A stretch of DNA of 64,000 bases, taken from the NCBI GenBank assembly GCA_034429745.1, contig DAOUFY010000108.1, forward strand, positions 4,136 through 68,135, given 5' to 3'. Origin of the DNA: Anaerolineales bacterium. GTDB lineage: Bacteria; Chloroflexota; Anaerolineae; Anaerolineales; DRKV01. The first letter of the stretch is position 1, and every line of letters begins with the position of its first letter. A model generated the notes under the pieces. The model was not told the DNA's origin and did no database searches. It saw only the letters and a list, made by a program, of their open reading frames with translations. Made by a program: the position numbers and the translations under genes. Below are positions 34,010 through 64,000 of this stretch, one piece after another.

Positions 34010-35839
34010 ATGGAGAGGGAAGGCAATTTGGATGATTTGAATGAATTGCGCCAACTGGCTGAACGCAAGGTCAAATCCGAAATTGACGTAAAAGGTGTAG
34101 AGACCATCGAGGATGCGCGCGTATTGCTGCATGAATTGCAGATTCATCAAATAGAACTGGAGATGCAAAATGAAGAATTGCGCACCACACGGCAGATGTT
34201 GGAGGAAGAACGCAACAAATACGCGGATTTGTATGATTTTGCACCGATAAGCTATTTTACTTTAAACCCAGAGGGGATTATTCTCGAGATAAATTTAAAT
34301 GGTTCGATGTTGTTGGGCAGGGAACGCAGGTATCTCATCTCAAAACCTTTCGTGTCTTATTTGGCGAACGAATCTCATCAAGTGTTTTTCCAAGCTTTGC
34401 ACAATGCAGCAGCAACAAATGAACCTCAAACATGTGAAGTGATCCTACGTGAAGCTTCTTCTCAATACCCAACATCGAAGCCATCGTTGGGTGAGAAAGT
34501 ATTTTTGCAATTGAAAATTTCTCCATACTTTAGTAAGGAAGCAGAAAGATTTGCGTTGCGCTGTGCTGCAACAGATATCAGCTTGCTAAAGCAGGCTCAA
34601 ATAAAAGTGGAATATGAATCCCGCGTTAATGAAGCCTTGGCAAAGTTGGCAGGAGGAATACTGGTCTCAGATTCTATCAATACTCTAGCTGATGAGGTGC
34701 TCAAAATAGCCCTCAGTCTAACGGACAGCTGCTATGGATTTGTAAGTTACATTGACCAAGAAAAAGGAGTGATGATCGCACCAACTTTAACCAAAGAAAT
34801 ATGGGCTACCTGCAATATACCCCAAAAACAATTTGTATTTGATAAATATGGTGGGCTATGGGGATGGGTAGCAAAGAACAAAGCACCTTTGTTAACTAAT
34901 CAACCGGCCGCCGATCCGCGTTCTGGGGGTGTGCCGGATGGCCATGTTCCCATTCATCGCTTTCTGGGGGTGCCGGTTGTGGCAGGTGATCAATTGTTAG
35001 GCATCATCGCCGTTGCCAATGCTAATCGGGAGTATCAAGTTCAAGATCAGGATACGTTAGGTAGAGTGGCGGATCTATATGCTGTTGCTATACAGCAGTT
35101 CCGTGCGGCTGACTTGTTGAAAAAGCGCACGCAAGAACTTATCCGCTCTAATCAAGAATTGGAAGAATTTGCTTATGTAGCTTCTCATGATTTGCAGGAG
35201 CCCCTGCGGAAAATACGCAGTTTCACCGAATTGCTGCAGAAGCAGCTATACGTTAATATAGATGAGCGTTCGCGTAAGTATATGGATTATGTTGTGGATG
35301 CTGCTCAGAGAATGCAATTGTTGATCAACGACCTGCTGGAGTACTCTCGTTTAGGAAGACTCGAAATAACCTATAAATCGGTGGATATGGAAGCCTTGTT
35401 TAACAAATTGATTTCAGACCTATCACATTTGATTGAGGAAAGCGGCGCAGTCATTACCCATGATCCGTTGCCGCAGATAAAAGCCAACCCGATACAGATG
35501 GAACGTTTGCTGCAAAATTTACTGACGAATGCCTTAAAGTTCCGTACAAGTGAACCGCCGCGGATTTACGTTACAGCCCATCAACAACAGGTTGAGGCAG
35601 CGCAAGGTGATGTCAATGAATGGGTATTTTCTGTCAAAGATAACGGAATTGGCATTCATCCGGATTATCATGAGCGGATCTTTCAACTCTTTCAACGATT
35701 GCATTCGCGGGAGGAATACTCGGGCAGCGGAATGGGGCTGGCAATTTGCAAAAAAATTGTTGAAAAACATGGGGGAAAGATTTGGGTTGAATCGCAAGAG
35801 GGTAAGGGGTCAACCTTTTACTTTACTATTCCCGCCTAA
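34010..35839 (+). CDS. PAS-GAF sensor histidine kinase, cytoplasmic
   Basis: N-terminal coil LHELQIHQIELEMQNEELRTT, a PAS module, a GAF-like module, an H-box (YVASHDLQEPLRKI), and HATPase boxes (LLTNALKF, DNGIGI, GSGMGLA). It starts 30 nt after the CheB/CheR gene. Confidence 0.9.
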   Translation: MEREGNLDDLNELRQLAERKVKSEIDVKGVETIEDARVLLHELQIHQIELEMQNEELRTTRQMLEEERNKYADLYDFAPISYFTLNPEGIILEINLNGSMLLGRERRYLISKPFVSYLANESHQVFFQALHNAAATNEPQTCEVILREASSQYPTSKPSLGEKVFLQLKISPYFSKEAERFALRCAATDISLLKQAQIKVEYESRVNEALAKLAGGILVSDSINTLADEVLKIALSLTDSCYGFVSYIDQEKGVMIAPTLTKEIWATCNIPQKQFVFDKYGGLWGWVAKNKAPLLTNQPAADPRSGGVPDGHVPIHRFLGVPVVAGDQLLGIIAVANANREYQVQDQDTLGRVADLYAVAIQQFRAADLLKKRTQELIRSNQELEEFAYVASHDLQEPLRKIRSFTELLQKQLYVNIDERSRKYMDYVVDAAQRMQLLINDLLEYSRLGRLEITYKSVDMEALFNKLISDLSHLIEESGAVITHDPLPQIKANPIQMERLLQNLLTNALKFRTSEPPRIYVTAHQQQVEAAQGDVNEWVFSVKDNGIGIHPDYHERIFQLFQRLHSREEYSGSGMGLAICKKIVEKHGGKIWVESQEGKGSTFYFTIPA

Positions 35840-36007: not shown

Positions 36008-36688
36008 ATGAGGAAAAATAAACGATTGCTTTGCATTTTATCTATGCTTTTGATCACTTCGATGATGCTTGCTGCTTGTCAGGGACAACCGACTGCCGAT
36101 GCCTCTAAAATAATTGGAAAAGAATTGTATTCAGATGATTTTTCAAATGAGAAAAGCGGCTGGCAGGTGGTGAATACTGATCAAGGAGTTTTAGGGTATG
36201 AAGACGGCGCCTACCGTATGTTTTTGAATGTACCGGCGTTCACGTCGTTTGTGGGGGCTCAAAAGGCTTTCAACGATGTAGAAATAGAAGTAGATGTAAC
36301 CAAGACGGCTGGACCTGATGAGAGCGTATATGGAGTATTATGCCGCCAAGTAGATGAAGGTAATTTTTACCTCTTTGTCATCAGCAGCGCCGGGTATTAT
36401 GGCATCGGCAAGGTGTTTGAAGGCAAAGGAGTAACCTTTTTAGGGAGCGAAAAATCAGATATGCTGTTAGCCAGCGATGCTATTAAAAAGGGGAATGAAA
36501 CCAATCATCTCAAGGTTGTATGTGCCCAAAACACGCTTTCGATGGCAGTCAATGGCAAGCAGCTGCTTTCGGTGCAAGATACAGATATTGAAAGCGGTGA
36601 TATTGGTTTTATTGTAAAAACATTTGATAAACCCGGCATTGATGTAAAGTTTGACAACTTGGTTGTGCGATTGCCTAGTGAGCCATGA
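36008..36688 (+). CDS. Secreted lipoprotein with a LamG/DUF1080-like beta-sandwich pattern
   Basis: Lipobox MMLAAC|Q. Its body has the alternating-strand pattern seen in concanavalin-like domains (FNDVEIEVDV ... YGVLCR ... NFYLFVIS ... LKVVC..NTLSMAVNGKQL ... GDIGFIV ... VKFDNLVVRL). The fold call is tentative. Confidence 0.6.
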   Translation: MRKNKRLLCILSMLLITSMMLAACQGQPTADASKIIGKELYSDDFSNEKSGWQVVNTDQGVLGYEDGAYRMFLNVPAFTSFVGAQKAFNDVEIEVDVTKTAGPDESVYGVLCRQVDEGNFYLFVISSAGYYGIGKVFEGKGVTFLGSEKSDMLLASDAIKKGNETNHLKVVCAQNTLSMAVNGKQLLSVQDTDIESGDIGFIVKTFDKPGIDVKFDNLVVRLPSEP

Positions 36689-38058
36689 GAGTGTATGTAG
36701 ATACGGTTGGATGCCGTCTGAATCAAGCAGAAATTGAAATGATAGCCCAGCAGTTTGCCGCTGCTGGGCATGTTCTTGTTTCTGTACCTGATGAAGCGGA
36801 TTTGGCTGTATTGAATACATGCACGGTAACCGCCAAAGCAGATGCCGATTCGCGCAGTCAGGTGCGCCGCTTGCAGAGGGCCGGCGTAAAGCAAATCATT
36901 CTCACCGGTTGCTGGGCTTCGCTGCGGGCTGAAGAGGCTTCTGCCTTTGAAGGTGTGCAGCAAGTTGTGCTTAATTCCCAAAAAGATCGTTTAACTGAGG
37001 TAGTGTTAACACAACTGCATCAGCAAAATAAAGTTTTCGTTCTGCCGCAGACAGACGCTCCTATCCTCTATAAAGGATTAAGCGGCAAGAGACACCGCAC
37101 GCGAGCATTTATTAAAGTACAGGATGGCTGCGATGATCACTGCACATTTTGCATCACCCGCATTGCTCGCGGTCCTGTTCGCAGCCGAACTGTGGAAGAA
37201 GTGGTGGAAGAGGTGCGCAGTGCATTGGGGCGCGGCGCAAAAGAAGTGGTGCTCAGCGGTGTACAGCTGGCGGCGTGGGGAAAAGACCTGCATGATTTGC
37301 CGCCGAGCAGACGTCATTTGCGCGCCTTAATTGAGACAATAATGGAACAGACTGCTCCGCCTCGCCTGCGTTTGTCATCCTTGGAAGCTTGGCACCTCGA
37401 TAAATCGTTTTTTACTATTTTGAAGGATAAGCGCATTTGCCGCCATCTGCATTTGCCGCTGCAATCCGGCTGCAATGAGACATTGAAGCGGATGGGGCGG
37501 CGCACGCGCCGCGAGTCATTCGCTGCCCTGATGGAGGATGCTTTGCAGCAGTGCTCCGATTTGGCAATCACGACGGATATTATGGTGGGGTTCCCGGGAG
37601 AGACAGAAGAGGAATTTGCTGCAAGTCTTGAATTTGTGAAAGAAATGAATTTTGCGGGTGGACATGTATTCACCTATTCGGAAAGGAAAGGCACACCCGC
37701 AGCTGCATTTCCAAACCCGGTGCCTATTTCAGTGCGCAAAGAACGCAATGCACTTATGCGTGCAGTGCTTTTGCAATCTGCGCGCCGCTACCGTCAGCGG
37801 TTTGTTGGAACGGTACGTTCAGTGTTATGGGAACGTGCCGAACTCCTTTCAAAGGAGAAAAACAGCGCTTTGCTGAAAACCTCTGCATTTAATGAGTTTT
37901 CAGCGCAGGCAGCTTCTGCTTCTTTAGGAGAACGCGGCTGGAGACTGGAAGGGTTGACAGACAACTACCTGCGCGTCAAGGTACTATCTTCTCATAACCT
38001 TTGGAATGAAATTACAGAGGTTATGCTGGATGAAAACAACTTGTTTCTTGAAGAGTGA
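36685..38058 (+). CDS. mtaB: MiaB-like radical SAM methylthiotransferase (MtaB type)
   Basis: UPF0004 N-domain (TVGCRLNQAE ... NTCTVT), a radical SAM motif (GCDDHCTFC), and a TRAM-like C-terminus. ATGA overlap with the preceding gene. Confidence 0.85.
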   Translation: MRVYVDTVGCRLNQAEIEMIAQQFAAAGHVLVSVPDEADLAVLNTCTVTAKADADSRSQVRRLQRAGVKQIILTGCWASLRAEEASAFEGVQQVVLNSQKDRLTEVVLTQLHQQNKVFVLPQTDAPILYKGLSGKRHRTRAFIKVQDGCDDHCTFCITRIARGPVRSRTVEEVVEEVRSALGRGAKEVVLSGVQLAAWGKDLHDLPPSRRHLRALIETIMEQTAPPRLRLSSLEAWHLDKSFFTILKDKRICRHLHLPLQSGCNETLKRMGRRTRRESFAALMEDALQQCSDLAITTDIMVGFPGETEEEFAASLEFVKEMNFAGGHVFTYSERKGTPAAAFPNPVPISVRKERNALMRAVLLQSARRYRQRFVGTVRSVLWERAELLSKEKNSALLKTSAFNEFSAQAASASLGERGWRLEGLTDNYLRVKVLSSHNLWNEITEVMLDENNLFLEE

Positions 38059-39619: not shown

Positions 39620-40642
39620 GTGAAGATAAAACAAAAAACAGGTTTCTCCAACAATATGATGAAAGCATTCAAAGTGGGTATATTCAGTGCCATCCTGCTG
39701 CTTAGTCTGAGCGCTTGTTTGCTTTTTCAAGCCGATCGTTCTAAACCTACAATTGTGGTTGTCAAGGAAGAAATGTCATTGGAAGAAGCGATGACGCTGG
39801 TTGCTGAAGCAACTGCTGAAGGGATAGGGTCTTTGAAATCAGAAGGAGAAGCCGCTGCCTCAGCAACGCCCTACGTGAATAGCATGGAGCAAGGAGAAAG
39901 CTTACCACCAGCCCAAGCAGCAACCGCCAAAGCGCTTGGTGTTCAGGCAACTCAAGCGGTGCAAGCTGCACTGAATCAACTTTCTACAGCGCAGGTGTTG
40001 CTAAGCACTCAAACTCAGGTGATTCGCCAAAGAACCTTGCAGCCAGTAAGCACACTGGCTTTTACGGAAACGGCTTGGCCCTCGCCGGTTGCCACCAACC
40101 CGACAACATTTTTCCGCAATACGTTCACGCCTAAGCCAACGCACACTTTTACTCTTACTCCAACGGAGACTTTAACTGCCACCCCTATACCGCCGGGGCT
40201 GCGCGGTTTGACAGTTGATCAAGTGAAGGCCGCGTTAGCAGCAAAGGGAATTACACAGTGCCGGGAAGAAACCGATAACTGGGTGAAGATGACTGTTTGC
40301 GAATCTCAAACTGCGGATAGAAAAAATTGGTATTATGCAGAGATTTATAGTGTGCCCGCCCTGCAGATTGACGTCAATAACGTGATAATGGCAGTGTTTC
40401 AAACTGATCCAAATGATGAAGTAACTTTGGATAAACTGAGGGCATTAGCAGAATTAAATTATGTCGGTTCAGACGCAGCGGCAGCGCGAGCGTGGCTTGA
40501 ACAGAACTTGCCTTCCTTGGGGAATGAGAATGATAAGCGTAAAAATCTTTTTGGAGGTGTGTGGTTTGTGCTTTATGGACCAAAGAATGGGGTGCGTTTA
40601 GAGATTGGTTCACCGCCTCCTTACCCAACTCCACCTAGTTAA
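39620..40642 (+). CDS. Hypothetical lipoprotein with a Thr/Pro-rich linker
   Basis: GTG start 6 nt after GGGAGG, and lipobox LSLSAC|L. An extended -10 (TGGTATAAT, 39573-39581) lies upstream. No family recognised. Confidence 0.5.
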   Translation: MKIKQKTGFSNNMMKAFKVGIFSAILLLSLSACLLFQADRSKPTIVVVKEEMSLEEAMTLVAEATAEGIGSLKSEGEAAASATPYVNSMEQGESLPPAQAATAKALGVQATQAVQAALNQLSTAQVLLSTQTQVIRQRTLQPVSTLAFTETAWPSPVATNPTTFFRNTFTPKPTHTFTLTPTETLTATPIPPGLRGLTVDQVKAALAAKGITQCREETDNWVKMTVCESQTADRKNWYYAEIYSVPALQIDVNNVIMAVFQTDPNDEVTLDKLRALAELNYVGSDAAAARAWLEQNLPSLGNENDKRKNLFGGVWFVLYGPKNGVRLEIGSPPPYPTPPS

Positions 40643-47108: not shown

Positions 47109-48650
47109 TTATTTTAGCTGTTTTAAAGCTTCTTGCACCCGGCTGCGCATGGTTTTATCGGGGTTAAGGCGCAGGATGGCTTCTAAATCGGCTTTAGCTT
47201 TTTCCTTCTCACCCATGGCGATGTAAAGCGAGGCGCGTGTGTCTAAAAATTCGATTGTCTTAGGTGAAAGAGATAAAGCTTGATTGCAATCAGCCAGCGC
47301 TTTTTGAAATTCCTTTAATTGTGTATAGAGCCAGCAGCGGTTGTTGTAATCTATGGCGTGGTCAGTAACCCGCTGCAATACTTGATCATAATCATCAAGG
47401 GCTTTTTGATAATTACCTTGTTCAGCATGGATTGCAGCGCGGGCGCGGTAAGCCCAAACTTCATTGGGATTCAGCTCAATAGCTTTGGAGAAGTCGTTGA
47501 GTGCTTTTTCCATTTCACCCATGTTTTGGTAGGTGTATCCGCGGTATAAATAGGGCTGAGCGTCGGTCGGGGCGTTTTGTATGGCTAGTTGAAAGTCGTT
47601 TATGGCGGCGGTGAAATTACCCAGTTCGCTTTGGGCGCGGGCGCGATACAAATAACCTTCAGCAGAAGAATAAGTGAGATTGCCTTCAATGGCTTGGTTA
47701 AGTAGTGTTACAGCCTGTGCGAAATTGCCCTGTTGAAAAGCTTGGATGCCTTGAGCCGTGAGAGCATCGGGAGTGGGACTGGGTTTGTAAAAAGCAGAAG
47801 TTGGAGTAGGTGTAGGCAATTTTTCATCCCCTATAGTCCAGCACTCAATTTGATCCATGTGTACGCGCAGGCCGTAATCTTTGTTTCTGCCGGAAGCAAG
47901 GGCAAAATTCAACCTGCCAGTGTGAAATTTTTCACTGCGCAGCAGTTCATCGCTGGTTTTTGCGACGAGCTTATTGTTAACAAAAAAAAGGATCTGCGGT
48001 TCCTCGACAACCAGCATCAAAGAAGCTTTTCCCTGTGGGAGATCAAGTTTTCCATAACGTTTGTAGTTTAGCCGTTTGAGGGAAGAGCCATTATCTTCAA
48101 CGCGAAAGATATCCACATAGCCATTCAGGAGCAAAAAGGCAGCATAATAACTTGTGCCATTATTTTCACGAAATACAAAGCCCATACCGCTCATATTCCA
48201 ATCGGCATTGGGACTGGCAGAATCCCAAGTAACATTGGTGCGTATAATAAAATTGCGCGGCCTATAGCCACTTGTCTGCCAGGCAAAATAGCCCCGTTTA
48301 GCTATTTGCTGTTCGACACTTGGAAGAGAAATAAAGCTGCCTTTATTTGTGCTGAGCAGTTTCTGCTCGTAGAGCTTCTGAACCACTTCTTCCAAAGAGA
48401 GAAGATTGTTAAATGGTTCAGTGGGAGCAGCTTCTGTTTGCCGAGCAGCAGGGGGCTTTGTTGCAGTTGAAGCGTTATGCAAAGAAGCAGTTGCGGTTGG
48501 AGTGGTGGATGCCGCAGCTGCTGGATTTTCAATGAAAAACTGAGAAGCTATGGTGCTCATCAGCAGTATAGCCAATAAATTCACAACTATAGCCATGAAT
48601 GGATGGTTGTTCAACCTATGAAGTTTCTGGGGCAGAAGTCTAATCATCAA
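47109..48650 (-). CDS. Membrane-anchored protein: beta-sandwich paralogue domain plus C-terminal TPR repeats
   Basis: N-terminal TM segment. The central domain (PRNFIIRTNVTWDSASPNADWNMSGMGFVFRE ... LMLVVEEPQILFFVNNKLVA ... MDQIECWTI) is homologous to the ORFs at 60306 and 61209. At least five TPR-like repeats follow. It overlaps the upstream kinase gene by 11 nt. Confidence 0.7.
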   Translation of the reverse strand: MMIRLLPQKLHRLNNHPFMAIVVNLLAILLMSTIASQFFIENPAAAASTTPTATASLHNASTATKPPAARQTEAAPTEPFNNLLSLEEVVQKLYEQKLLSTNKGSFISLPSVEQQIAKRGYFAWQTSGYRPRNFIIRTNVTWDSASPNADWNMSGMGFVFRENNGTSYYAAFLLLNGYVDIFRVEDNGSSLKRLNYKRYGKLDLPQGKASLMLVVEEPQILFFVNNKLVAKTSDELLRSEKFHTGRLNFALASGRNKDYGLRVHMDQIECWTIGDEKLPTPTPTSAFYKPSPTPDALTAQGIQAFQQGNFAQAVTLLNQAIEGNLTYSSAEGYLYRARAQSELGNFTAAINDFQLAIQNAPTDAQPYLYRGYTYQNMGEMEKALNDFSKAIELNPNEVWAYRARAAIHAEQGNYQKALDDYDQVLQRVTDHAIDYNNRCWLYTQLKEFQKALADCNQALSLSPKTIEFLDTRASLYIAMGEKEKAKADLEAILRLNPDKTMRSRVQEALKQLK

Positions 48651-51414
48651 ACCTCCCGTGAATAGTGGATTCGCTATCTTCTTCGCCTTTAGGTTCAGGA
48701 ATCATGGTGGAGATATCGGGTTTTTCTGGAAAGCGGATAGTAAATGTTGTGCCACGCCCTACCTCAGACTCGACGTTAATTTCTGCTTGATGAGCTCGCA
48801 CAATACCATGAACAACAGATAGCCCAAGACCTGTGCCTTCTCCAATTGGTTTAGTGGTAAAGAATGGATCAAATATTTTCTCTTTTACTTCATCGGGCAT
48901 GCCTTTGCCAGTATCTTTAACTTCCAGTACAATCCAACCTCCTTGTGCGTCATAGAAAGTACGAATGTATATTTCACCTCCGCTTGGCATAGCATCGCGG
49001 GCATTGGTAAGCAGATTAATGATAATTTGAGAGATTTTATCGCGGTCGCAGGTAATGGGGGGCAAATTCGCTGCCAGGAAAGAAACAATAGAAATGTTCG
49101 ACCAGCTGCGAAGCTGATGCTCGATAAGCAGCAAGGTATCTTGAATAATGTGGTTAAGGTCGGCTTGCTGAAAAGTACTGACTGGTGTACGGGCATAAGT
49201 GAGCAGAGAACGGATAATATCTGCTACCCGCCAGCCATTGCGGCGCACAGTATCCAAATATTTTTTTGCGCGTTCGGCGTCAAATTCGCCTTTTTCAAGG
49301 CGGGTAAGCAAGCTTTCAGCAATACCCAAGATGGTTTGGAGTGGGCTGTTGATCTCATGGGCAATGCCGGCAGCTAAAGTACCTAGAGTTGCCAGCTTTT
49401 GCGAAGAGACTAAAGCCGCTTCCAAATGTTTTTTCTCTGTGATATCTTCTTTTAAGGCAATATAGTGAGTGATGTTGCCATCTTTATCGAAAATGGGCGC
49501 TATCCACGCTTGTTCCCAATACAGCTCACCATTTTTCTTTTTATTGTGAAATTCACCGCGCCACTCTTTGCCAGAACTGATAGTTTGCCACATTGCTCTA
49601 TACTCTTCAGGGGGTGTTTCACCGGATTTTAGGATGCGCGGGTTTTGCCCAATAACTTCTTCAGAAGAGTAGCCGGTTATTTGAGTGAATTTAGGGTTGA
49701 CATATTCAATATCACCTTGCAAGTTGGTGATAACAATGGAAATTGGGCTTTGTTCAACGGCTTGATTCAGTTTGCGCAGTTGATTTTCGAGCAAAACGTG
49801 ATGGGTGATATCCCTCGAAATGCCAACAAGACCAATAATTTCCCCCTTGTTATTATAGAAAGGAGCTTTGGAAGCAGAAAGCCAACGCGGCTCGCCATTT
49901 TTCTTAGGGTTGTATTCAATCCGATTGATGATGGTTTTCCTTTGGTGAAAGATAAGTTCTTGCTCTTCGGAGTAAAAAATCTCAGCTAGATGAGTAGGCT
50001 GGATATCAAAATCTGTCTTGCCGATGATTTGGTCGGGATCCGGTATGTCCAAAATATTTTGAAAGCCCTTATTCACGCGAATAAATCGCGATTGGGTATC
50101 TTTGAAATAAATTGCATCGGGATGGTTTTCCATTAAGGCATTCAGCAGACTAGCTTCATAAGCGAGCTTTTCTTCAATTTGCTTTCTTTCTTCCAATTCC
50201 CACAAGTAGGCAATGTAATCGGCAACACCTTCCGCAAAGAATTTTTCTTCAAGGCTCCAAACACGATGGGTGCCAAAACGATCGATTCGCAAAATACCAG
50301 GTGTGGCTTCTTTGCAGTAAATTTGAACAGAGAGGGCAGAAAAAGGTTCCAGTGTATTGATGCTGCATGGACATACCCACCAATTATTCTGATCGGGCTT
50401 TTCACGAGGCGGAAAGAAGGATTCCAACGGCTCTTCCTTTAGTGAAGGCATAATAGGAACAATTGCGTGTAATGAGCATTCCTTTTCGTGTTGATGATTG
50501 TTGGTGCTGCGCGTATAGTGCTCATAGCACAGCAGTTTTTGCTGGTCTTCACTGATGCGCCAAATGCTCACTTGGTCTGTGCCAAAAAGCGAGCAAATGG
50601 TTTGTGCAATATCTTCAAAGGCTTCAGGAAGATTTGTGTAGGTTTGCTGATAGAACAATCGTAGAAAGTTTTGAAGTTTGCGCAATTGAGCTGCTTGATA
50701 ATTAGAACGTTCTTGTTCAAATAAGAGCAGATAGTAAAAAATAACCAGACTGCAAGCAATGAAAGTTATACTTAAAACGAAGAGACGCTCAACTTGTGAA
50801 AGTATCGAATAACCAAATTGTGAAGCAATCACGATGGTAAGCAGAAGAATTATAGTAAGGATTGCAAAACCGCTCATGTAATAGGGCAACCGATGCTTAA
50901 AGTAACTAATTCGGTAAGCAGGCAAGATGTTTTCGCGATAGTTCACAATCATATTCATGACGATAATAATAAGACAGAAAAACAGCAACAGGTGCAGAAT
51001 AATGGTTATAGAGAATGATAGTGCATTATTGAGAATGCTCAATGCATGAAGAAAGGATTGAAAGCTCGAGAGAAAAGCCAACAGAATCAAAATGCCTAGA
51101 GAGTAAAATAATGGCGGAGTGATTTTTTCTTGCCAGCGAACAGGGGCTGTTTTGCTTAGGAAAAATATTAAGCTAATGCAAGCTAAAGCAGCAAACAATG
51201 GATGGAGGTAGGTTATAGCGGGAGGGAGGTTTATCGTGTAGCGGATTAATTTTATCCAGTGGTAGATGGTTAATAACAGGCTGGCAATGCTAAAGGCTCT
51301 CCAAGGGACATGCCGATCGAGGTTTTTGAGGGAGAAGCTAAAAGAAGTAGCAAAAAGAAGAAAAAGGCTGTTGAATAAGGTAATGAAATCAAAATATAAC
51401 ACTAAATTCTTCAT
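48640..51414 (-). CDS. Sensor histidine kinase: polytopic membrane domain, GAF-like region and two PAS modules
   Basis: H-box [13 protein letters not shown], and HATPase boxes [16 protein letters not shown] and GEGTGLGLS. The kinase core closely parallels that of the kinase at 17346-20684. Confidence 0.9.
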
Positions 51415-56116: not shown

Positions 56117-57730
56117 ATGGCTTTAGCGTTATATAGGAAATGGCGTCCTCGCCGTTGGGAAGATGTGGTTGGTCAGCAACACATTGTGCAGACTCTACGC
56201 AATGCGGTGGCGGCTGAAAAAGTAGCGCATGCCTATTTGTTTGCTGGTCCACGCGGCACCGGCAAGACAACTACTGCCCGCTTGCTGGCTAAAGCAGTTA
56301 ATTGCTTGCATAAAGACTTAGCACAACGACCATGTGATACATGCGAGCCCTGTATTGCCCTCCAAGAAGGTCGCTTTTGGGATTTAATTGAAATTGATGC
56401 AGCTTCAAACACCAGCGTTGATGATGTTCGCGCGCTGCGGGATAAAATCCATTTTGCTCCAAGTCAAGGAAGGTATAAGGTATATATCATTGATGAGGTG
56501 CATATGCTTTCCACGGCGGCTTTCAATGCATTGCTGAAAACGCTTGAAGAGCCGCCTGCCCATGCGCTCTTTATTTTGGCGACTACAGACGTGCATAAAG
56601 TGCCCGCTACTGTGCTTTCACGTTGTCAACGGCATGAATTTCGCAGAATTCCCCTGAATGAAATGGTGAATTATTTGAGCTTGAAAAGTAAGGAAGAGGG
56701 CTTGAAAGTGGAACCCGCTGCTTTGCAGCTTATTGCGCGCCAATCCAGTGGTTGTTTGCGGGATGCCATTTCTCTTTTAGATCAAATAGCTAGTGGGGCT
56801 GAAGAGATTGATCTGTCGTTGGTGCATTCGGTCTTGGGAACTACCACTAGTCAAGACATTATCACCTTGCTGGAAACATTGAGGACTAGAGAATATGCAA
56901 AGGGTATAGCAGTTATTCAACAGGCTTTGGAGCGCGGTGTGGACCCCAAGCAGTTCGCTCGTCAATGGATAGATTTTCTGCGCATGGTGTTGTTAGTGAA
57001 AATGGGTGATGCCATAACTCTGGATGTCAGTCCGGAAGTCCTTAAGGAAATTCAGAAATATGCTCAAGCATTTACTATTCCCACTTTATTGGGGTATATA
57101 AAAGCGGTGAACCAAGAAGATAATGAAAGGCGCAATCTCTGGCTGCCTTCTTTGCCGCTTGAAATGTCTTATGTTGAGTGCATGCTGATTGAGGAGAAGA
57201 AAAGCCCTATAGCTGAAGACGCCGGGGTTGCTTCTCAAGCTGCAAAACCTGCACCATCAGTCAGTCAGCCGGCCGGCAGTGTGCTGTCTGCTGAAGGAAG
57301 AGAAAAACACCCAACCGTTGCCTTAAAAACTGCTCCACCTACACCTGCAAAGGATTTTACTCCGCTTGAGGAAAAGCCGCTTTTTGATAAGGTACGCCAA
57401 CAATGGCGGGCTATTCTTGCAGCTGCCCGCAAGATGAACCCGCAGACTCAAGCTTTGCTGAATTCTGTCAAACTGGTTGGAATGCGGGATGGAGCATTAA
57501 CAATAGATTGTCTCAGTGAGTTTATTAGAGCGAAAATTGAAAGTGATGATCATCTGGCTATTGCTCGGCGCGCAATTAAAGAAGTGATTCAACAGGAACT
57601 AAAGCTGCATTGTGTAGTGCTTGGTGAACAGGTGGCTCAGCTTCCCGAAGATGTTGAGCCGGATGGTATGATTGCTGTAGCGGTTAATGAATATGGTGGT
57701 AAAATTGGAGAGGTTATTGAAGAACAATAG
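56117..57730 (+). CDS. dnaX: DNA polymerase III subunit gamma/tau
   Basis: GPRGTGKTT, the Zn module CDTCEPC, IIDEVHMLS and SRCQRHEF. Confidence 0.92.
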   Translation: MALALYRKWRPRRWEDVVGQQHIVQTLRNAVAAEKVAHAYLFAGPRGTGKTTTARLLAKAVNCLHKDLAQRPCDTCEPCIALQEGRFWDLIEIDAASNTSVDDVRALRDKIHFAPSQGRYKVYIIDEVHMLSTAAFNALLKTLEEPPAHALFILATTDVHKVPATVLSRCQRHEFRRIPLNEMVNYLSLKSKEEGLKVEPAALQLIARQSSGCLRDAISLLDQIASGAEEIDLSLVHSVLGTTTSQDIITLLETLRTREYAKGIAVIQQALERGVDPKQFARQWIDFLRMVLLVKMGDAITLDVSPEVLKEIQKYAQAFTIPTLLGYIKAVNQEDNERRNLWLPSLPLEMSYVECMLIEEKKSPIAEDAGVASQAAKPAPSVSQPAGSVLSAEGREKHPTVALKTAPPTPAKDFTPLEEKPLFDKVRQQWRAILAAARKMNPQTQALLNSVKLVGMRDGALTIDCLSEFIRAKIESDDHLAIARRAIKEVIQQELKLHCVVLGEQVAQLPEDVEPDGMIAVAVNEYGGKIGEVIEEQ

Positions 57731-57756
57731 CGTGAGAAGAGAAAGGACGCAGCAGT

Positions 57757-58104
57757 ATGGCAAAAGGATATAAGGGCGGATTTCAAAGGGGGGGCGGCTT
57801 TGGTGATCCCATGGGTATGATACAGCAGTTGCAGAAGCAACTGAACGAAGCCCAGCAAAGTCTTGAAGAAGAACTTGTAACTGCTACTGTTGGCGGTGGA
57901 GCTGTAAAGGTAACCATGACGGGAAGCCAAGTGTGCAAATCGGTTGAAATTAGTCCCAGCGTGTTTGAAGAAGGCGATGTAGAAATGCTGCAGGACTTAA
58001 TTTTGGCTGCCTTTCAGCAAGCTCAAGAGAAAGCAAAAGCTTTAACTGCCGAACGATTAGGTCCCCTTACAGCCGGGCTTGGTGGTTTGCCGGGGCTGTT
58101 CTAG
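57757..58104 (+). CDS. ybaB: YbaB/EbfC-family nucleoid-associated protein
   Basis: 115 aa in the conserved position between dnaX and recR. The core MIQQLQKQLNEAQQSLEEE...TATVGGGAVKVTMTG is typical of the family. Confidence 0.88.
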   Translation: MAKGYKGGFQRGGGFGDPMGMIQQLQKQLNEAQQSLEEELVTATVGGGAVKVTMTGSQVCKSVEISPSVFEEGDVEMLQDLILAAFQQAQEKAKALTAERLGPLTAGLGGLPGLF

Positions 58105-58116
58105 TGGAGGGCAACA

Positions 58117-58725
58117 ATGCTCTTGCTGCCACAGCCAGTCCAAAACTTGGTGGATGCGTTTTCCAAGCTGCCGGGGATTGGGCCTAAAACAGCTTCGCGG
58201 TTAACTTTTTTTCTGCTTCACGCGCCAGATTCTCTATCGCTAGAGTTAGCGGATGCGCTGAAAGCCCTTAAGGAGGGCACAACTCAATGCAAAAATTGTT
58301 TTCATATCACTGCAGCCGGGAGGGAGCTGTGTGAGATTTGCAGTGATCCGAGCCGCGAGCGCGAGATGATCTGTGTTGTTGAAGACGCGCTAGATGTTAT
58401 CGCATTAGAACGAGTAGGCGGCTACCGTGGATTGTACCACGTTCTCCAGGGTGTCCTTTCTCCGATTGAGGGCGTGGGGCCGGATGACTTACGAATAAAA
58501 GAATTGCTGCAGCGAGTACACGGCAGTGAGCAAATTAAAGAAGTGATCTTGGCGACTAACCCGAGTTTGGAGGGAGATGCTACAGCCATGTATCTCAGCC
58601 AGCAATTGGCGAGTTGCAACGTAAGGGTTACTCGTTTGGCACGCGGCTTGCCTATGGGCGGAGATTTGGAGTATGCAGATCAGACCACCCTGCTGCGAGC
58701 CTTGCAGGGACGGCAGGAGATTTAA
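58117..58725 (+). CDS. recR: Recombination protein RecR
   Basis: HhH motif (LPGIGPKTASRL), Cys4 zinc finger (CKNCFH...CEIC), and a Toprim domain (VVEDALDV). Confidence 0.93.
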   Translation: MLLLPQPVQNLVDAFSKLPGIGPKTASRLTFFLLHAPDSLSLELADALKALKEGTTQCKNCFHITAAGRELCEICSDPSREREMICVVEDALDVIALERVGGYRGLYHVLQGVLSPIEGVGPDDLRIKELLQRVHGSEQIKEVILATNPSLEGDATAMYLSQQLASCNVRVTRLARGLPMGGDLEYADQTTLLRALQGRQEI

Positions 58726-58748
58726 GGATCAGAAGAGGCGGATGAGCT

Positions 58749-60131
58749 ATGGCGCAAAAACCACCTTTAGCAACCGGCACTTTGCTTAACCGCCGTTATC
58801 GCATTGTGCGCTTGTTAGGGCAAGGGGGTTTTGGCGCTGTGTATCGAGCCTGGGATTTAAACCTCAATCGCCCTTGTGCGGTTAAAGAAAATACCGATGT
58901 TTCTCTTGAAGCGGTGCGCCAATTTAGTCGCGAAGCTTCTCTGCTTGCCAATTTAAGCCATCCGAATTTGCCGCGAGTTACCGATCACTTCAGCATCCCC
59001 GGTCAGGGGCAGTACCTAGTGATGGACTTTATTGAGGGTGAAGATTTAAGGGAGATGGTGGAAAAGTCCTTTGAACCGTTGCCCGAAGAGCAAGTACTGC
59101 CTTGGATCATTCAAGTTTGCGATGCGCTTTCCTATTTGCACTCATTACCCCAACCAATTATTCATCGCGACCTTAAGCCGGCAAATATCCGCATTACCCC
59201 GCAAGGAAAAGCCTATTTAGTTGACTTTGGAATTGCTAAAATTTATGACCCTCAATTGCACACAACTTCTGGAGCAAAAGCTCTTTCGCCCGGCTATTCA
59301 CCCCCCGAACAATATGGGCAAGGAAGAACAGATGCCCGTTCGGATGTTTATGCACTTGGGGCAACTCTCTACACCCTTTTGACAGGTCAAAGACCGCCGG
59401 ATAGTGTGGACTTGTTAACTGCAACTGCCCCAAAGTTGCCCTCAGTGCGCTCGTTGAACCCTAAAGTATCGCCGGCGTTAAGCATGGTGATTGAAAAAGC
59501 CATGCAGCTTGATAGAAACCTGCGTTTTCAAAATATTGAAGAATTCAAAGAAGCCCTGCTTAGCATTATGGAAGCTAAGCAAAAGAACAAAAATCGCTGG
59601 CAAAGAATAGGAATTTGGGCCGGTTTAGGCTTTGGGCTGCTATTGCTTGTAATGGCTGTCTTCAGTGTAAGGGGCTGTCAGCGGATTACACCCGGCGCGG
59701 GAACACCAATAAATGCACCAACAGTGCAGCCACTCTTGACTGGAATTATGCAGCGCATTAGTGGTTCACTGACCCCTCAAGAAGGATTAGAAGAGAGCAC
59801 CCCATCCCCAACGCCTTCAGGAATACAGGAAGAGATTGTCTCTCCAACTGTAGAGATACAGCCAACACAGCCCTATCTCATTTATGTGCGGGAAGGACCA
59901 GGACGAGAATATCCTGTCATCGGAGAGATTCGCAATGAGACTCGTTTTAATGTCATTGGGCGCAATCGCGAAGGTGATTGGCTGTATATTATGCTTTCCA
60001 ATGGTGAAGAAGGATGGGCATTTGCGGAAGTGATCACGTATTACACGGGCTATCAAGGTGATGTTGAGGCTTTGCCAACTGTTAAACCCATCGTTACTCC
60101 TCCTGCGACAACAACAAAACCTCCACCTTAA
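58749..60131 (+). CDS. Hanks-type Ser/Thr protein kinase with one TM segment and an extracellular SH3b-like domain
   Basis: GQGGFGAVY, VAVK-type Lys (CAVKE), HRDLKPANI, DFGIA and SPGYSPPE. A TM helix (IGIWAGLGFGLLLLVMAVF) is followed by YVREGPGREYPVIGE...GDWLYI...GWAF. Confidence 0.9.
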   Translation: MAQKPPLATGTLLNRRYRIVRLLGQGGFGAVYRAWDLNLNRPCAVKENTDVSLEAVRQFSREASLLANLSHPNLPRVTDHFSIPGQGQYLVMDFIEGEDLREMVEKSFEPLPEEQVLPWIIQVCDALSYLHSLPQPIIHRDLKPANIRITPQGKAYLVDFGIAKIYDPQLHTTSGAKALSPGYSPPEQYGQGRTDARSDVYALGATLYTLLTGQRPPDSVDLLTATAPKLPSVRSLNPKVSPALSMVIEKAMQLDRNLRFQNIEEFKEALLSIMEAKQKNKNRWQRIGIWAGLGFGLLLLVMAVFSVRGCQRITPGAGTPINAPTVQPLLTGIMQRISGSLTPQEGLEESTPSPTPSGIQEEIVSPTVEIQPTQPYLIYVREGPGREYPVIGEIRNETRFNVIGRNREGDWLYIMLSNGEEGWAFAEVITYYTGYQGDVEALPTVKPIVTPPATTTKPPP

Positions 60132-60305
60132 ACAAAGCTTTAGAACAAGGCGCATCGTTACGAATTTCGAACAATAAGCCCCATAGTTGTATTCTACCTA
60201 GTAGGAATAATCAAACTCCAATCAAGTGTTCGGTAGTACTGCCATTCAGGATGTTGGGATGGCAGTCATGAGTAATATTATTTTAATTTAGATAGGAGGT
60301 TAACG

Positions 60306-61091
60306 ATGAAAGGAAAACAAAAGCTCTTTGTCATTATAGGCTGCAGCTTGCTCTTGTGGGCCGGTTTTTGGTTGATGGCAGCACCAATGAAAACCCAAGG
60401 CAAAGGAGAGAATAGCGCGTCAAACTCATTGGCGGCGGCGACGAAAGCTTCTCCCACGGCTAAACCCGCCTCTGGAAAGGAAGGGATGCTGGCGTCTATT
60501 AAAAAGCTGCAAAAAGACAAAAAACTAGGCAGCGATGCAGAAAATGGAACTTTTTATGAGTTGGAGGATTTTGAAAGAAGTGAGGCGAGGCTACAATACA
60601 TTTTTTGGTACACCACAGATTACGCTCCTAAAAATTTTATCCTGAGAGCGGATGTGGAATGGGAATCAGCTAGCACAACAGCAAATTGGAAAGATTCCGG
60701 TTTTGGCATCGTGTTTCATGAGAGTGAGGACCAAAATTTTTTTTACTTAGTTCAGGTATTGCTGGATGGAAATATAAAAGTTTGGCGTATGAATTTGTTA
60801 GCAGAAAATTACCTTGGTAAAAGGTGGGTTTTATTGGCAGAAAAGTATTACGGAAAACCAGAAACTCCTAAAGGACAAACTCATTTAGATCTTGTTGTTA
60901 ATCAAGACCGAGTGTATGTTTACCTCAACAATAAACTGGCAATCAGTGCCTATGATCACCCTATGAAAACACATCCAATTTTTGGAGAAGGGAAGTTGGC
61001 GTTTACTGTTGTTTCTGGCACCAATGCTGGTTTTGGAACGTGGGTAAAAATGTCAAATATCGAATTATGGGAAATGAAAAGCTTGGATTGA
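60306..61091 (+). CDS. Secreted/anchored beta-sandwich paralogue 1
   Basis: N-terminal hydrophobic signal/anchor. KKLQKDKKL helix, then PKNFILRADVEWESAS..ANWKDSGFGIVFHE ... LDLVVNQDRVYVYLNNKLA ... MSNIELWEM. AGGAGG SD upstream. Confidence 0.55.
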   Translation: MKGKQKLFVIIGCSLLLWAGFWLMAAPMKTQGKGENSASNSLAAATKASPTAKPASGKEGMLASIKKLQKDKKLGSDAENGTFYELEDFERSEARLQYIFWYTTDYAPKNFILRADVEWESASTTANWKDSGFGIVFHESEDQNFFYLVQVLLDGNIKVWRMNLLAENYLGKRWVLLAEKYYGKPETPKGQTHLDLVVNQDRVYVYLNNKLAISAYDHPMKTHPIFGEGKLAFTVVSGTNAGFGTWVKMSNIELWEMKSLD

Positions 61092-61208
61092 GCCGAGCAA
61101 GCCATCATCAACAGAATGGATACATTCAGGCTACAGCTTATGCAGCTGCGAGCTGAATGGACCAATGGTTAATGGCAATCATACACAGCGATAAAATGAG
61201 AGGGTTAG

Positions 61209-61970
61209 ATGAAAAATGGTAACCGAATATTTATCATGCTGCTTGTCTTTGTGATCAGTGCGTTTGTCTTTGCTGGCCCAAAACCAATTGAGGCGGTGGA
61301 GGCGGAGAGGAAGGGTGGCATTTCAATGGCGCCAGTGATAACGAAAACTGTGGCGGCTCAAGAGGGTGAAAAGCGAATGGTGGAATTTGTTAAAAAGCTG
61401 CAAAAGCAGAAGAGACTTAACGCAGGTGCAGAAAAGGGAAATTATAAAAAACTTGCTGATGTTGAAATGACTGCTGATAAAATCCATGAATTTTCCAGAA
61501 AAGAAAGCGGGTTTTCTCCTAAAGATTTTGTTTTGCGTATGGATGCAACATGGGAATTGGCTAGCCCTAAAGCTGATATGAGCAAAGCTTCTTTTGGTGT
61601 TGAGTTTCATAACACTGATGACAAATATTTATATCATGTGCAACTATATTTTAGTAAAATAGTGTATATTGGAAGGTATAATGAATATAAACCTGAAAAA
61701 TCTCAATGGACTGCTTTAGATATCGAAAAGTATGGAAATTTGGGTGCTTCTGCAGGCGATGTTCATGTGGATATTGTTGTAAATCAAGGGCAAGTATATG
61801 TGTATCTTGACAATAAATATGTTGCCAGTGCCTATGATCCTGCCATGACATCTTCTAGTTTATTTGAAAAGGGCAAGTTAGCCTTTATAGGTTGGAGCGA
61901 TTCAAAAGCCGGTCCCGAAATCCGGGTGAAGCTGAGCAACGTTGAACTATGGGAGATAGCAGAAAATTAG
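61209..61970 (+). CDS. Secreted/anchored beta-sandwich paralogue 2 (tandem duplicate)
   Basis: Same architecture as the previous ORF: KKLQKQKRL, PKDFVLRMDATWELASPKADMSKASFGVEFHN, VDIVVNQGQVYVYLDNKYVA and LSNVELWEI. Confidence 0.55.
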   Translation: MKNGNRIFIMLLVFVISAFVFAGPKPIEAVEAERKGGISMAPVITKTVAAQEGEKRMVEFVKKLQKQKRLNAGAEKGNYKKLADVEMTADKIHEFSRKESGFSPKDFVLRMDATWELASPKADMSKASFGVEFHNTDDKYLYHVQLYFSKIVYIGRYNEYKPEKSQWTALDIEKYGNLGASAGDVHVDIVVNQGQVYVYLDNKYVASAYDPAMTSSSLFEKGKLAFIGWSDSKAGPEIRVKLSNVELWEIAEN

Positions 61971-61979
61971 GTTGGCTGA

Positions 61980-62876
61980 ATGAACATTGAATGGTTCTTG
62001 AATATGTTATTACGGGATTTAGCAAACCTGTGGGAACAAGTAATCCAGGGGCTGATGCCGGTTACAGGGTATTTTGACTGGATCCTTGCGGCGCGTCTGG
62101 TGCTAACACTGATTCTGTGCGGCTTAATTGGATTGGAGCGATCGGGGCATGAAAGTGCGACAGGATTTAGGCCGCATATTTTAGTTGGGTTAGGTGCCTG
62201 TCTGATGACAATGGCAGGCATCTATGCCCTGCCAGAAAGCAGTAGTATGCGCGACCCGATGCGGGTTGCGAGTTATGTGGTTTCAGGCATTGGATTTTTG
62301 GGCGCAGGAGCTATCCTGCGTCATGGGGCTATTGTGCAAGGAGTAACTACTGCAGCCAGTATATGGGGCTGTGCGGGAATTGGGATTGCAGTCGGTGCAG
62401 GCTTGGGAATGCAAGCCATTTTTTTCACTATGCTGGTGCTGTTTACCTTGGTTGTGTTGGAGTGGGTGGAGGAGCGCTTGACTCAGCGGGGAAGAGAAAA
62501 GTATTTGAACATTCACCTCAAAGATGCCAACCGAGCAGTAGGAAAAGTTCTAACGGCATTGAGCCGGCTTGGGGTAAAGGTGAAAAAAGCGAATGTTGTG
62601 CCGGCTGAAGGAGAGACTTCGCTGTTAATGGTTGAATTAACTCAGCCGATGAAAGCTCCGGCGATGGCAAACTTGGTTAAACAACTGCTTTTTCTTAAAT
62701 CAATTTTGCATGTTGATGTTGGGTATCTCACCAATGAACAACTGAGACAAATGGTGCTGGAACAAGATTCGATAAAAGATGATGAAAAGAGTGATACCGA
62801 TAAGCTAGAACAAGAAACAAAGGCTCTCTTTGAGGACCTCAATTTAGGTGATGAGGAACAGGATTTTCACCCGTGA
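61980..62876 (+). CDS. mgtC: MgtC/SapB-family membrane protein with an ACT-like domain and an acidic tail
   Basis: LIGLERSGHESATGFRPHILVGLGA and GIGFLGAGAI are typical of the MgtC N-domain. The C-terminal soluble domain ends in a D/E-rich tail. Confidence 0.8.
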   Translation: MNIEWFLNMLLRDLANLWEQVIQGLMPVTGYFDWILAARLVLTLILCGLIGLERSGHESATGFRPHILVGLGACLMTMAGIYALPESSSMRDPMRVASYVVSGIGFLGAGAILRHGAIVQGVTTAASIWGCAGIGIAVGAGLGMQAIFFTMLVLFTLVVLEWVEERLTQRGREKYLNIHLKDANRAVGKVLTALSRLGVKVKKANVVPAEGETSLLMVELTQPMKAPAMANLVKQLLFLKSILHVDVGYLTNEQLRQMVLEQDSIKDDEKSDTDKLEQETKALFEDLNLGDEEQDFHP

Positions 62877-62923
62877 AAATATCTTAGAGAAAGACCTCAT
62901 CAACTCTTCAAAAGCAAAATCTC

Positions 62924-62952
62924 TTGACTCTTGTTTTGTTTTTTTCTATAAT
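62924..62952 (+). promoter_or_regulatory. Near-consensus sigma-70 promoter at the start of a long non-coding leader
   Basis: TTGACT (62924-62929), a 17-nt spacer, then TATAAT (62947-62952). The next credible start codon is about 330 nt downstream. Confidence 0.5.
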
Positions 62953-63280
62953 TATCTATAAAAGGGATATTTCCCATGATTTGCCCCTTGGTAGAGTTAT
63001 ACTAGCTGATAGTCATTATCCAATAATATAGATGAATTAATTTATTGCCAATACAACACTAAACAAATTAGCTTTGACTCACATTTCAGCGAAAGCGAGA
63101 GTTGAAGGACGATAAAGGAATAACGTTTAGTAACAAAGAATTGGCATTGTGAACTTAGTTCCTCATTGTTTCCCTTTGTAAATACATCGCCAACATAATA
63201 ATACGTCTTTCGACGTCAAAGAGAACCTCATGACTCAAACCGATGTGAGGCTGAAAAGGTTTAAGAAGGGAGAGTCTGTT

Positions 63281-64000
63281 ATGTTAAACTTGCGGCCTTT
63301 AGGGAGATTAATTGTGCCCTGCATGCTGTTGGTTGTCATGATTGCTTTAAATGCTTGCTTTAGAGTGGAAAATCAGCCAAGAGTATGGATTGATTACCCG
63401 CGCGATGGTTTAACCCTGCCACCCCATACGCAATTAGAGATATTATCTCATGCCTATGCTCGCCGTGGGGTGGGTGAAGTGGTTCTTTTAGTGAATGGGG
63501 TAGAAATGCAACGTGGTCGTCCGTCAGGAGAGAATGCAAGCTCGGTCAAGATGAAGCATGTATGGAATCCTCCTGATGCCGGTTCTTATTCGTTAGAGCT
63601 TATTGCTTATGATACGGCGGGAAACCCAAGCCCGCCGGCATTGGTGCGAGTTGAAGTAAAAGGTATGAAGCCACAACAGCAAGTTGGTTCAATTGATATA
63701 GCTTTAGAAAAAGTTGAGCCTCTTGTAAGTGGATACAAAGGTGAATACCCGATATGCCAACTTGTTGTGGTTGCTCGCAATCGCGGTGATGCTGCAACCG
63801 ATAGAGATTTTCAAGCGCAATTGTATTACAACGGAGTTTTAAATCAATCTCGAGATATTGCCGCTGGCCTTCAGCCTCAAAGTGAAACTGTAGTGGATTT
63901 CAATTTTTCTTTTACTACCACAGCAACAATTGGAATTGTGCTGGACGCCGCTAATACCATTGCTGAAACAGATGAAAATAACAATTCAGTGGTAAAGACG
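63281..64000 (+). CDS. Lipoprotein with Ig-like and CARDB-like domains, 3'-truncated by the window edge (not in the ORF track)
   Basis: I translated this by hand. ATG at 63281 lies after GGGAGAG. The N-terminus MLNLRPLGRLIVPCMLLVVMIALNAC has a lipobox. The frame stays open to base 64000. An Ig-like segment (YSLELIAYDTAGNPS) is followed by a CARDB-like ending (LDAANTIAETDENNNS). Confidence 0.6.
   Translation, partial: MLNLRPLGRLIVPCMLLVVMIALNACFRVENQPRVWIDYPRDGLTLPPHTQLEILSHAYARRGVGEVVLLVNGVEMQRGRPSGENASSVKMKHVWNPPDAGSYSLELIAYDTAGNPSPPALVRVEVKGMKPQQQVGSIDIALEKVEPLVSGYKGEYPICQLVVVARNRGDAATDRDFQAQLYYNGVLNQSRDIAAGLQPQSETVVDFNFSFTTTATIGIVLDAANTIAETDENNNSVVKT

Follow-up and report, generated by a model that had tools for sequence, protein, structure and literature searches.

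A gene for a Hanks-type Ser/Thr kinase followed on the same strand by two similar genes for secreted proteins, designated P1 and P2, raises the question of whether such proteins form a family of dedicated kinase partners or stand beside a kinase in one lineage only. The genes lie in a 64,000-nucleotide (nt) stretch of an Anaerolineales bacterium (Chloroflexota; GenBank assembly GCA_034429745.1, contig DAOUFY010000108.1, positions 4,136 to 68,135), the whole of which is referred to here as the window and to which all coordinates given without a contig handle belong. An earlier note on this DNA had described P1 and P2 as part of a kinase-adjacent paralogue family whose products would act as accessory co-sensors. 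The analysis presented here favours, with a probability of about 0.6, a reading in which tandem duplication gave rise to P1 and P2, both of them forms of a membrane-tethered extracytoplasmic module that serves as a portable surface binding module, and in which pairing with kinases is not a property of the family.

P1 (261 amino acids (aa), 60306-61091, forward strand) and P2 (253 aa, 61209-61970, forward strand) are clear paralogues, as had been proposed from their shared motifs, with a BLASTP expect value (E) of 2e-46 and 33% identity over 257 aa. Both carry KKLQKxKxL, P[KR][ND]F[IV]LR, W[ED].AS, FG[IV].FH, VVNQ..VYVYL[ND]NK and SN[IV]ELWE, and P2 lacks two family-conserved features in that the Trp of the ANW motif is lost and SGTN is replaced by SDSK. 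A looser form of the shared motifs is present in P3 (513 aa, 47109-48650, reverse strand), which consists of an anchor, the module at residues ~80-275 (47826-48413) and TPR repeats at ~294-510, and whose N-terminal half was matched by P1 at E 7e-35 with 34% identity. The fourth protein, P4 (226 aa, 36008-36688, forward strand), is a lipoprotein with a LAAC lipobox and a DUF1080-like beta-sandwich. It is identified by profile comparison as a distant relative of the module (hhalign against the family profile, probability 92% and E 6e-7; family hidden Markov model, E 5e-8), and BLASTP gave E 0.002 against P1 and nothing against P3. The recurrence of the module in P3 and, more distantly, in P4 had been recognised before and was upheld. 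An extracytoplasmic location, also proposed previously, and with it exposure at the cell surface are predicted for all of the module proteins, as each of the four has an N-terminal hydrophobic segment by hydropathy (residues 7-25 in P1, P2 and P4) and P4 has its lipobox in addition.

An AlphaFold2 model of P1 built from nine sequences had a mean predicted local distance difference test (pLDDT) score of 81.8, with values above 90 across residues 50-258. After the anchor or signal segment and a linker, the model features one helix (residues 57-70) packed against a beta-sandwich (residues ~80-258). A Foldseek comparison of the model with the PDB returned CBM66 first (E 2e-10), followed by the C-terminal sandwiches of GH32 enzymes, DUF1080 structures including 3U1X, 3H3L and 8V31 as significant matches, and galectins. 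The nature of these matches identifies the fold as concanavalin-A-like, in agreement with the LamG- or DUF1080-like beta-sandwich that had been suggested from the sequence. CBM66, the fructan-binding C-terminal module of the Bacillus subtilis levanase SacC (PDB 4AZZ, 4B1L and 4B1M), was the best structural match, with a target-normalised template modelling (TM) score of ~0.69. Among PDB sequences it was also the sole meaningful match to the family profile (E 0.011), and its identity to the module is 15-18%. CBM66 and the module are both concanavalin-A-like sandwiches of similar size. They differ in that the module has an extra N-terminal helix and in that CBM66 sits on GH32 enzymes, whereas the module occurs either by itself, tethered to the membrane, or in fusions with TPR, DUF1080 or kinase domains, with no GH domain among the module architectures seen.

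The PF06439 family (3keto-disac_hyd, formerly DUF1080) has the fold and weak sequence matches in common with the module, which differs from it in a signature of its own and in a range that is almost restricted to Anaerolineae. The PF06439 scores of P1 and P4 were 22.3 and 26.4 bits, respectively, against a gathering cut-off of 26.8, and P2 and P3 had no PF06439 match, so none of the four proteins reaches the score for membership. The NCBIfam scan gave no family for P1, P2 or P4, and the Pfam scan of P2 gave no match.

A word-indexed protein search with P1 recovered only 7 relatives. The family came into view only when 1.84 billion representative proteins (clusters of ~50% identity) were searched exhaustively with a profile, which gave 445 clusters at a threshold of E<=1e-3 and 317 clusters at E<=1e-10. 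All but one of the 80 genome loci examined came from Chloroflexota, either Anaerolineae or other members of the phylum, and the isolate Leptolinea tardivitalis was among the sources. The exception was a 1.8-kb contig (L013, JACFNM010000577.1) from a bin labelled Chitinophagaceae. It holds a module gene of the Anaerolineae type and, after it, the gene for a kinase orthologous to P0102, which is described below, and it was probably mis-binned. In the typical member, a protein of 270-320 aa, a signal or lipobox precedes a long linker of low complexity and a C-terminal module of ~190 aa, and a lipobox-like motif was present in about half of 155 members. The family signature consists of WESAS, ANW, SGCGFVFR and SGTN..FGTRC. 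The main clade features a conserved Cys pair (SGCGFVFR ... FGTRC) and the SGTN loop, while P1, P2 and P3 grouped with about ten database proteins in a subclade that does not have the Cys pair. In the family alignment no His or Glu came close to the invariance expected of a catalytic or metal-binding residue, and the nearly invariant positions were mostly Gly, aromatics, Cys and the SGTN loop. Tandem arrays of two or three copies were found at 13 of 77 genome loci. Further architectures included two modules in one protein, the module with TPR repeats, the module with a canonical DUF1080 domain, and a kinase domain and transmembrane segment followed by the module; zinc-ribbon-like Cys motifs with a transmembrane segment and the module, and an N-terminal region resembling TolB-type beta-propellers with the module, were also read by eye.

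The gene neighbourhood of the family was surveyed by calling genes on 139 related loci (1.06 Mb), from which orthologues of the window loci were left out and of which 132 contained a family gene (149 genes). Kinases were detected with profiles built from the window's own kinases, searched against the called genes and partly against six-frame translations, and neighbours were compared with Pfam. Kinases occupied 5 of 235 adjacent positions and 2 of 708 non-adjacent positions, and one further locus encoded a fusion. An adjacent or fused kinase was thus not found at 126 of the 132 loci, and the description of these proteins as a kinase-adjacent family, which the earlier note had itself made dependent on most members lying beside kinases, falls on this result. 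The commonest neighbour families were VIT1, DUF1786 and His_Phos_1 upstream, and Lit, a giant adenylate-cyclase/AAA_16 protein and GcvP downstream, none of them a kinase. Two relatives considered individually, P0005 and P0010, had no kinase neighbour. Three of the five adjacent kinases (L013, L107 and L118) and the fusion (L037, identical to P0102) formed one orthologous group, and the three were rejected as independent adjacencies, all of them being P0102 orthologues.

The window itself contains four kinases among ~50 genes, and three of the four precede a module gene. Each of the three module loci does lie directly downstream of a same-strand kinase as reported earlier, with the Ser/Thr kinase before P1 and P2, and two histidine kinases, HK2 and HK1, before P3 and P4, respectively. 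Kinase adjacency was not found to be kept across divergent lineages, being confined to close relatives, and the three window adjacencies are real but lineage-specific.

Neighbours of other kinds were recorded on the surveyed loci. Lit (lipoprotein intramolecular transacylase, PF07314) was matched by 7 of 75 downstream neighbours, and PASTA domains were present in 3 of 69 upstream neighbours with no kinase domain detected (both at loci L009-L088). A protein of ~1,420 aa with adenylate/guanylate cyclase, AAA_16 and TPR domains (e.g. L070:6585-10910) adjoins or lies near one subgroup of the family, at loci L065, L070, L073, L076, L080, L081, L082, L084, L085 and L086. Three of these cyclase proteins were compared and were 73-75% identical, without transmembrane segments and cytoplasmic. 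This neighbourhood appears to represent a second conserved synteny with a signalling protein, probably within a single lineage.

A link between the module and Ser/Thr kinases is supported by the fusions. The layout of kinase domain, transmembrane segment and module occurs in two kinase lineages, represented by P0102 (637 aa) and P0112 (672 aa). The kinase domain of P0112 is 58% identical to that of the window kinase, compared with ~34% for the other kinases examined, which indicates that one kinase subfamily bears either SH3b or the module outside the membrane. P0112 was rejected as a positional orthologue of the window kinase, since its genomic context differs. It was present on 18 contigs, and the four examined share a small kinase cluster (L158:8001-13437), in which the fusion gene comes first and a Usp-domain gene and the gene for another Ser/Thr kinase, one with WD40 repeats, come after it. 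The P0102 lineage has a free-standing module gene directly upstream of the kinase, and its product is ~60% identical to the ectodomain module of that kinase, which is its closest paralogue. Two further arrangements were a module gene followed by a gene for a Pkinase-FHA-transmembrane protein (L053), and a GAF histidine kinase with several transmembrane segments followed by a module lipoprotein (L083). The layout of the window kinase, P0102 and P0112, that is a kinase domain, one transmembrane segment and an extracellular binding domain, is that of bacterial Hanks-type kinases with extracellular sensors, such as the PASTA kinases of the PknB/Stk1 type. In place of PASTA, their ectodomain is SH3b (window kinase) or a concanavalin-A-like module (P0102 and P0112). 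Unlike in the two fusions, separate genes encode the module in the window. A literature search returned no description of this module, or of a concanavalin-like domain, as the ectodomain of a Hanks-type kinase.

The window kinase (460 aa, 58749-60131, forward strand) has a kinase domain at residues 17-260, a single transmembrane segment by hydropathy at 287-305 and an SH3_3 domain at 379-428, separated from the membrane by a Pro/Thr-rich linker and predicted to be extracytoplasmic. Its Pfam scores were 133 bits for Pkinase (cut-off 31.7) and 39 bits for SH3_3 (SH3b; cut-off 27), and the best partial match in NCBIfam was the Stk1 PASTA kinase model. With Pkinase above the cut-off, one transmembrane segment and an extracellular domain, it qualifies as a Hanks-type membrane Ser/Thr kinase. 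A gene for an MgtC-family membrane protein (61980-62876, forward strand; Pfam MgtC 116 bits, with a weak ACT-like C-terminus) follows P2, a position that is conserved in the related contigs L004 and L001. The order YbaB-RecR-kinase-P1-P2-MgtC recurs in related contigs with P1 72-81% identical, and also in L001, a frameshift-ridden assembly of essentially the same organism. L001 (JGI Ga0496406_001111) is nearly identical to the window region, with its kinase, P1, Lon and DnaX genes split into short open reading frames, most likely through assembly frameshifts rather than as pseudogenes. As P1 is at least 72% identical among these relatives, they are too close for the synteny of kinase, P1 and P2 to be taken as independent evidence. 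Among non-syntenic relatives whose contig covers the upstream region, the nearest was P0010, which has no kinase upstream, and another close relative, P0004, begins at a contig end.

The intergenic distances at this locus are 23 nt between recR and the kinase, 174 nt between the kinase and P1, 117 nt between P1 and P2, and 9 nt between P2 and mgtC, and the wide kinase-P1 gap next to the tight recR-kinase and P2-mgtC junctions suggests separate units. The kinase-P1 gap (60132-60305, forward strand) contains an inverted repeat, AT-rich sequence and, ahead of the P1 start codon, the ribosome-binding site AGGAGG. The repeat, CTGCCAT...ATGGCAG at ~60238-60266 (~2727-2761 in L004), keeps its arms and varies in its loop in L004, L005 and L091, and may be a weak terminator, an operator or nothing. 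The folding energy of the hairpin was not significant (z -1.65 and 0.05), promoter and terminator counts across 57700-63300 were no higher than in shuffled sequence, and an Rfam search of the whole window returned one tRNA only, with no match in the kinase-P1 gap. The P1-P2 gap (61092-61208) measures 117 nt in the window versus 13 nt in L004, the extra sequence containing short palindromes (CAGCTTATGCAGCTGCGAGCTG).

A comparison of the window with L004 placed P1 and P2 apart from their neighbours in evolutionary rate. YbaB and RecR were 94-95% identical with a ratio of non-synonymous to synonymous substitution rates (dN/dS) of ~0.05. The kinase was 94% identical with dN/dS 0.05 (kinase domain 99%, transmembrane segment and ectodomain 87%), P1 was 81% identical with dN/dS 0.13, and P2 (61209-61970 versus L004:3599-4360) was 59% identical with dN/dS 0.35. 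P1 and P2 are therefore real genes that evolve fast under purifying selection. Rapid evolution is common among surface proteins.

At the HK2-P3 locus a module gene and a kinase gene overlap. HK2 (48640-51414, reverse strand) is a histidine kinase with at least six transmembrane segments, PAS domains, HisKA and HATPase_c as assigned by Pfam and hydropathy, and its stop codon overlaps the ATG of P3 by 8 nt, with a GGGAGG ribosome-binding site inside the end of the HK2 coding region. This arrangement argues for translational coupling of HK2 and P3, and the same type of overlap is present in L152. P3 has no second transmembrane segment, so the whole protein including the TPR part is predicted to be extracytoplasmic. 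Orthologous HK2-P3 pairs were found in L108 (histidine kinase 88% identical) and L152 (81% identical), and L108 was rejected as an independent pairing of a histidine kinase with the module, being an orthologue of the window locus. The module-TPR architecture of P3 also occurs in P0009, P0013 and P0015, and the more distant of these, P0013 and P0015, have a Peptidase_C1_2 (C1 peptidase) gene upstream rather than a kinase and face gyrA. Functional coupling of HK2 and P3 is plausible.

Coupling is unlikely at the HK1-P4 locus. HK1 (34010-35839, forward strand) is a soluble GAF-HisKA-HATPase_c histidine kinase by Pfam, in which hydropathy gave no membrane segment, the sole peak falling within the GAF domain. 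It begins 30 nt after a gene for a CheB-CheR-PAS fusion, a 1,232-aa protein (30281-33979) that combines CheB methylesterase, CheR methyltransferase and several PAS domains. P4 starts 168 nt beyond HK1, and its stop codon overlaps the start (ATGA) of a radical-SAM methylthiotransferase-like (UPF0004) gene at 36685-38058. A part accessible to an extracytoplasmic partner is present in the Ser/Thr kinase (one transmembrane segment and ectodomain) and in HK2 (at least six transmembrane segments) and is absent in HK1. Because HK1 has no transmembrane segment and P4 overlaps the radical-SAM gene, HK1 and P4 are implausible as an extracytoplasmic co-sensor pair.

The proposal that the whole family consists of dedicated extracytoplasmic co-sensors pairing with Ser/Thr and histidine kinases would account for three same-strand adjacencies within 64 kb, for the HK2-P3 overlap and for the modest enrichment of adjacent kinases over the 132 loci. 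It is nevertheless very unlikely, considering that the great majority of those loci have no adjacent or fused kinase, that kinases are not among the common neighbour families, that HK1 is cytoplasmic with P4 translationally coupled to the radical-SAM gene, and that the distant TPR fusions follow Peptidase_C1_2 and P0005 and P0010 have no kinase neighbour. A narrower version is possible though tentative, in which P1 and/or P2 would bind a ligand or the SH3b ectodomain and modulate the upstream kinase. Precedents exist in YycH/YycI, which are membrane-anchored extracellular partners encoded directly downstream of WalK and modulating that kinase (PMC7355866), and in the lipoprotein LpqB, which is encoded directly downstream of MtrB and modulates it in the same manner (PMC5845573). 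The gene arrangement in these systems is the one that the earlier note had proposed, and the folds and families are unrelated. The local version is also favoured by the gene order kept in related contigs, by a kinase of the same subfamily with the module in place of SH3b, by the free copy directly upstream of the P0102-type kinase, and by the module gene followed by the FHA-domain kinase. On the other side, the synteny is limited to close relatives, whereas the YycH/YycI and LpqB systems are co-transcribed and conserved across whole phyla. P1 also has a 174-nt gap with a strong ribosome-binding site of its own and an inverted repeat before it, where the neighbouring recR-kinase and P2-mgtC junctions are tighter. 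P0112 lies in a different genomic context, P0010 is without a kinase, and the dN/dS values of P1 and P2 are 2.5 to 7 times that of the kinase. On the strength of the kinase fusions elsewhere, functional coupling of some kind at the kinase-P1-P2 locus is a substantial possibility that falls short of an even chance. The part of the co-sensor proposal that stands is accordingly the link to Ser/Thr kinases, which the fusions back, while HK1-P4 drops out and HK2-P3 is confined to close relatives. The accessory extracytoplasmic protein beside a kinase is an established theme, so the pairing can no longer be called undescribed, and a local accessory role for P1 and P2 would add an instance and not a principle.

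Two other roles were considered for the module. P1 and P2 might be enzymes, either of the DUF1080 type (3-keto-disaccharide hydrolase) or glycoside hydrolases, with sugars of the envelope or the environment as substrates. Such activity is suggested by the weak PF06439 matches of P1 and P4, by structural matches that include DUF1080 entries described as putative glycosyl hydrolases and a 3-keto-2-hydroxy-glucal hydratase, and by relatives fused to a second, more canonical DUF1080 domain. It is improbable, as CBM66, which is non-catalytic, was the best match by structure and by profile, every PF06439 score is below the curated cut-off with no nearly invariant His or Glu in the family, and P2 has lost the conserved SGTN and Trp yet is under purifying selection. 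It is doubtful, if somewhat less so, that Ser/Thr-kinase signalling in Anaerolineae uses the module as a dedicated sensor or co-receptor domain whose free copies pair with the kinase ectodomain. Module would then pair with module in the P0102 lineage and with SH3b in the window, tuning or diversifying ligand sensing, and the rapid evolution would reflect changing ligands. If true, this would be a split-receptor arrangement for bacterial Hanks-type kinases built on a previously uncurated lectin-like domain.

In the preferred reading of a portable surface binding module, the ligand bound at the surface of the cell would be a glycan or part of the cell envelope, and binding would be non-catalytic. 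The module would be tethered N-terminally by an anchor or a lipid, and a flexible linker would keep it at a distance from the membrane. It is usually a free-standing lipoprotein without a nearby kinase, often in tandem, and is sometimes fused to TPR repeats, DUF1080 or a Hanks-type kinase. The reading is favoured because the closest match is a carbohydrate-binding module, because a nearly invariant His or Glu is lacking, and because the cell-wall-binding SH3b occupies the equivalent position in the sister kinase. Several points weigh against this reading. Kinases are enriched at adjacent positions across the family (odds ratio 7.7, one-sided p 0.012), and the three window adjacencies have a chance of ~2e-4 in a naive, post hoc calculation and could reflect real coupling in the lineage. 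The case for binding rather than catalysis comes from conservation patterns only, with ligand and site putative. The scans were driven by single peptide patterns and covered mostly the Cys-containing main clade rather than the window's Cys-less subclade. The genome scan pattern requires the main-clade Cys, so the window subclade and the source genome were not recovered, and a metagenome scan aimed at the Cys-less subclade used a pattern common to the main clade and gained one new subclade locus (L091).

Other predicted envelope proteins are encoded in the window. An open reading frame at 39620-40642 has a 340-aa lipoprotein-like product with a long low-complexity linker and no Pfam domain, and a CARDB-domain open reading frame at 63230-64000, also predicted to encode an envelope protein, runs off the window end.

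The three-fold kinase adjacency of the window does not generalise and should not become an annotation rule. What is new here is a so far uncurated family with the concanavalin-A-like fold, almost restricted to Anaerolineae and occasionally recruited to Ser/Thr kinases. With about 445 clusters, a signature of its own and a confident fold, this sizeable domain family is unnamed in curated libraries and could enter the domain databases. Signalling in the phylum has hardly been studied, and the module is a candidate for the ectodomain of its Ser/Thr kinases, a link that the kinase fusions make testable.

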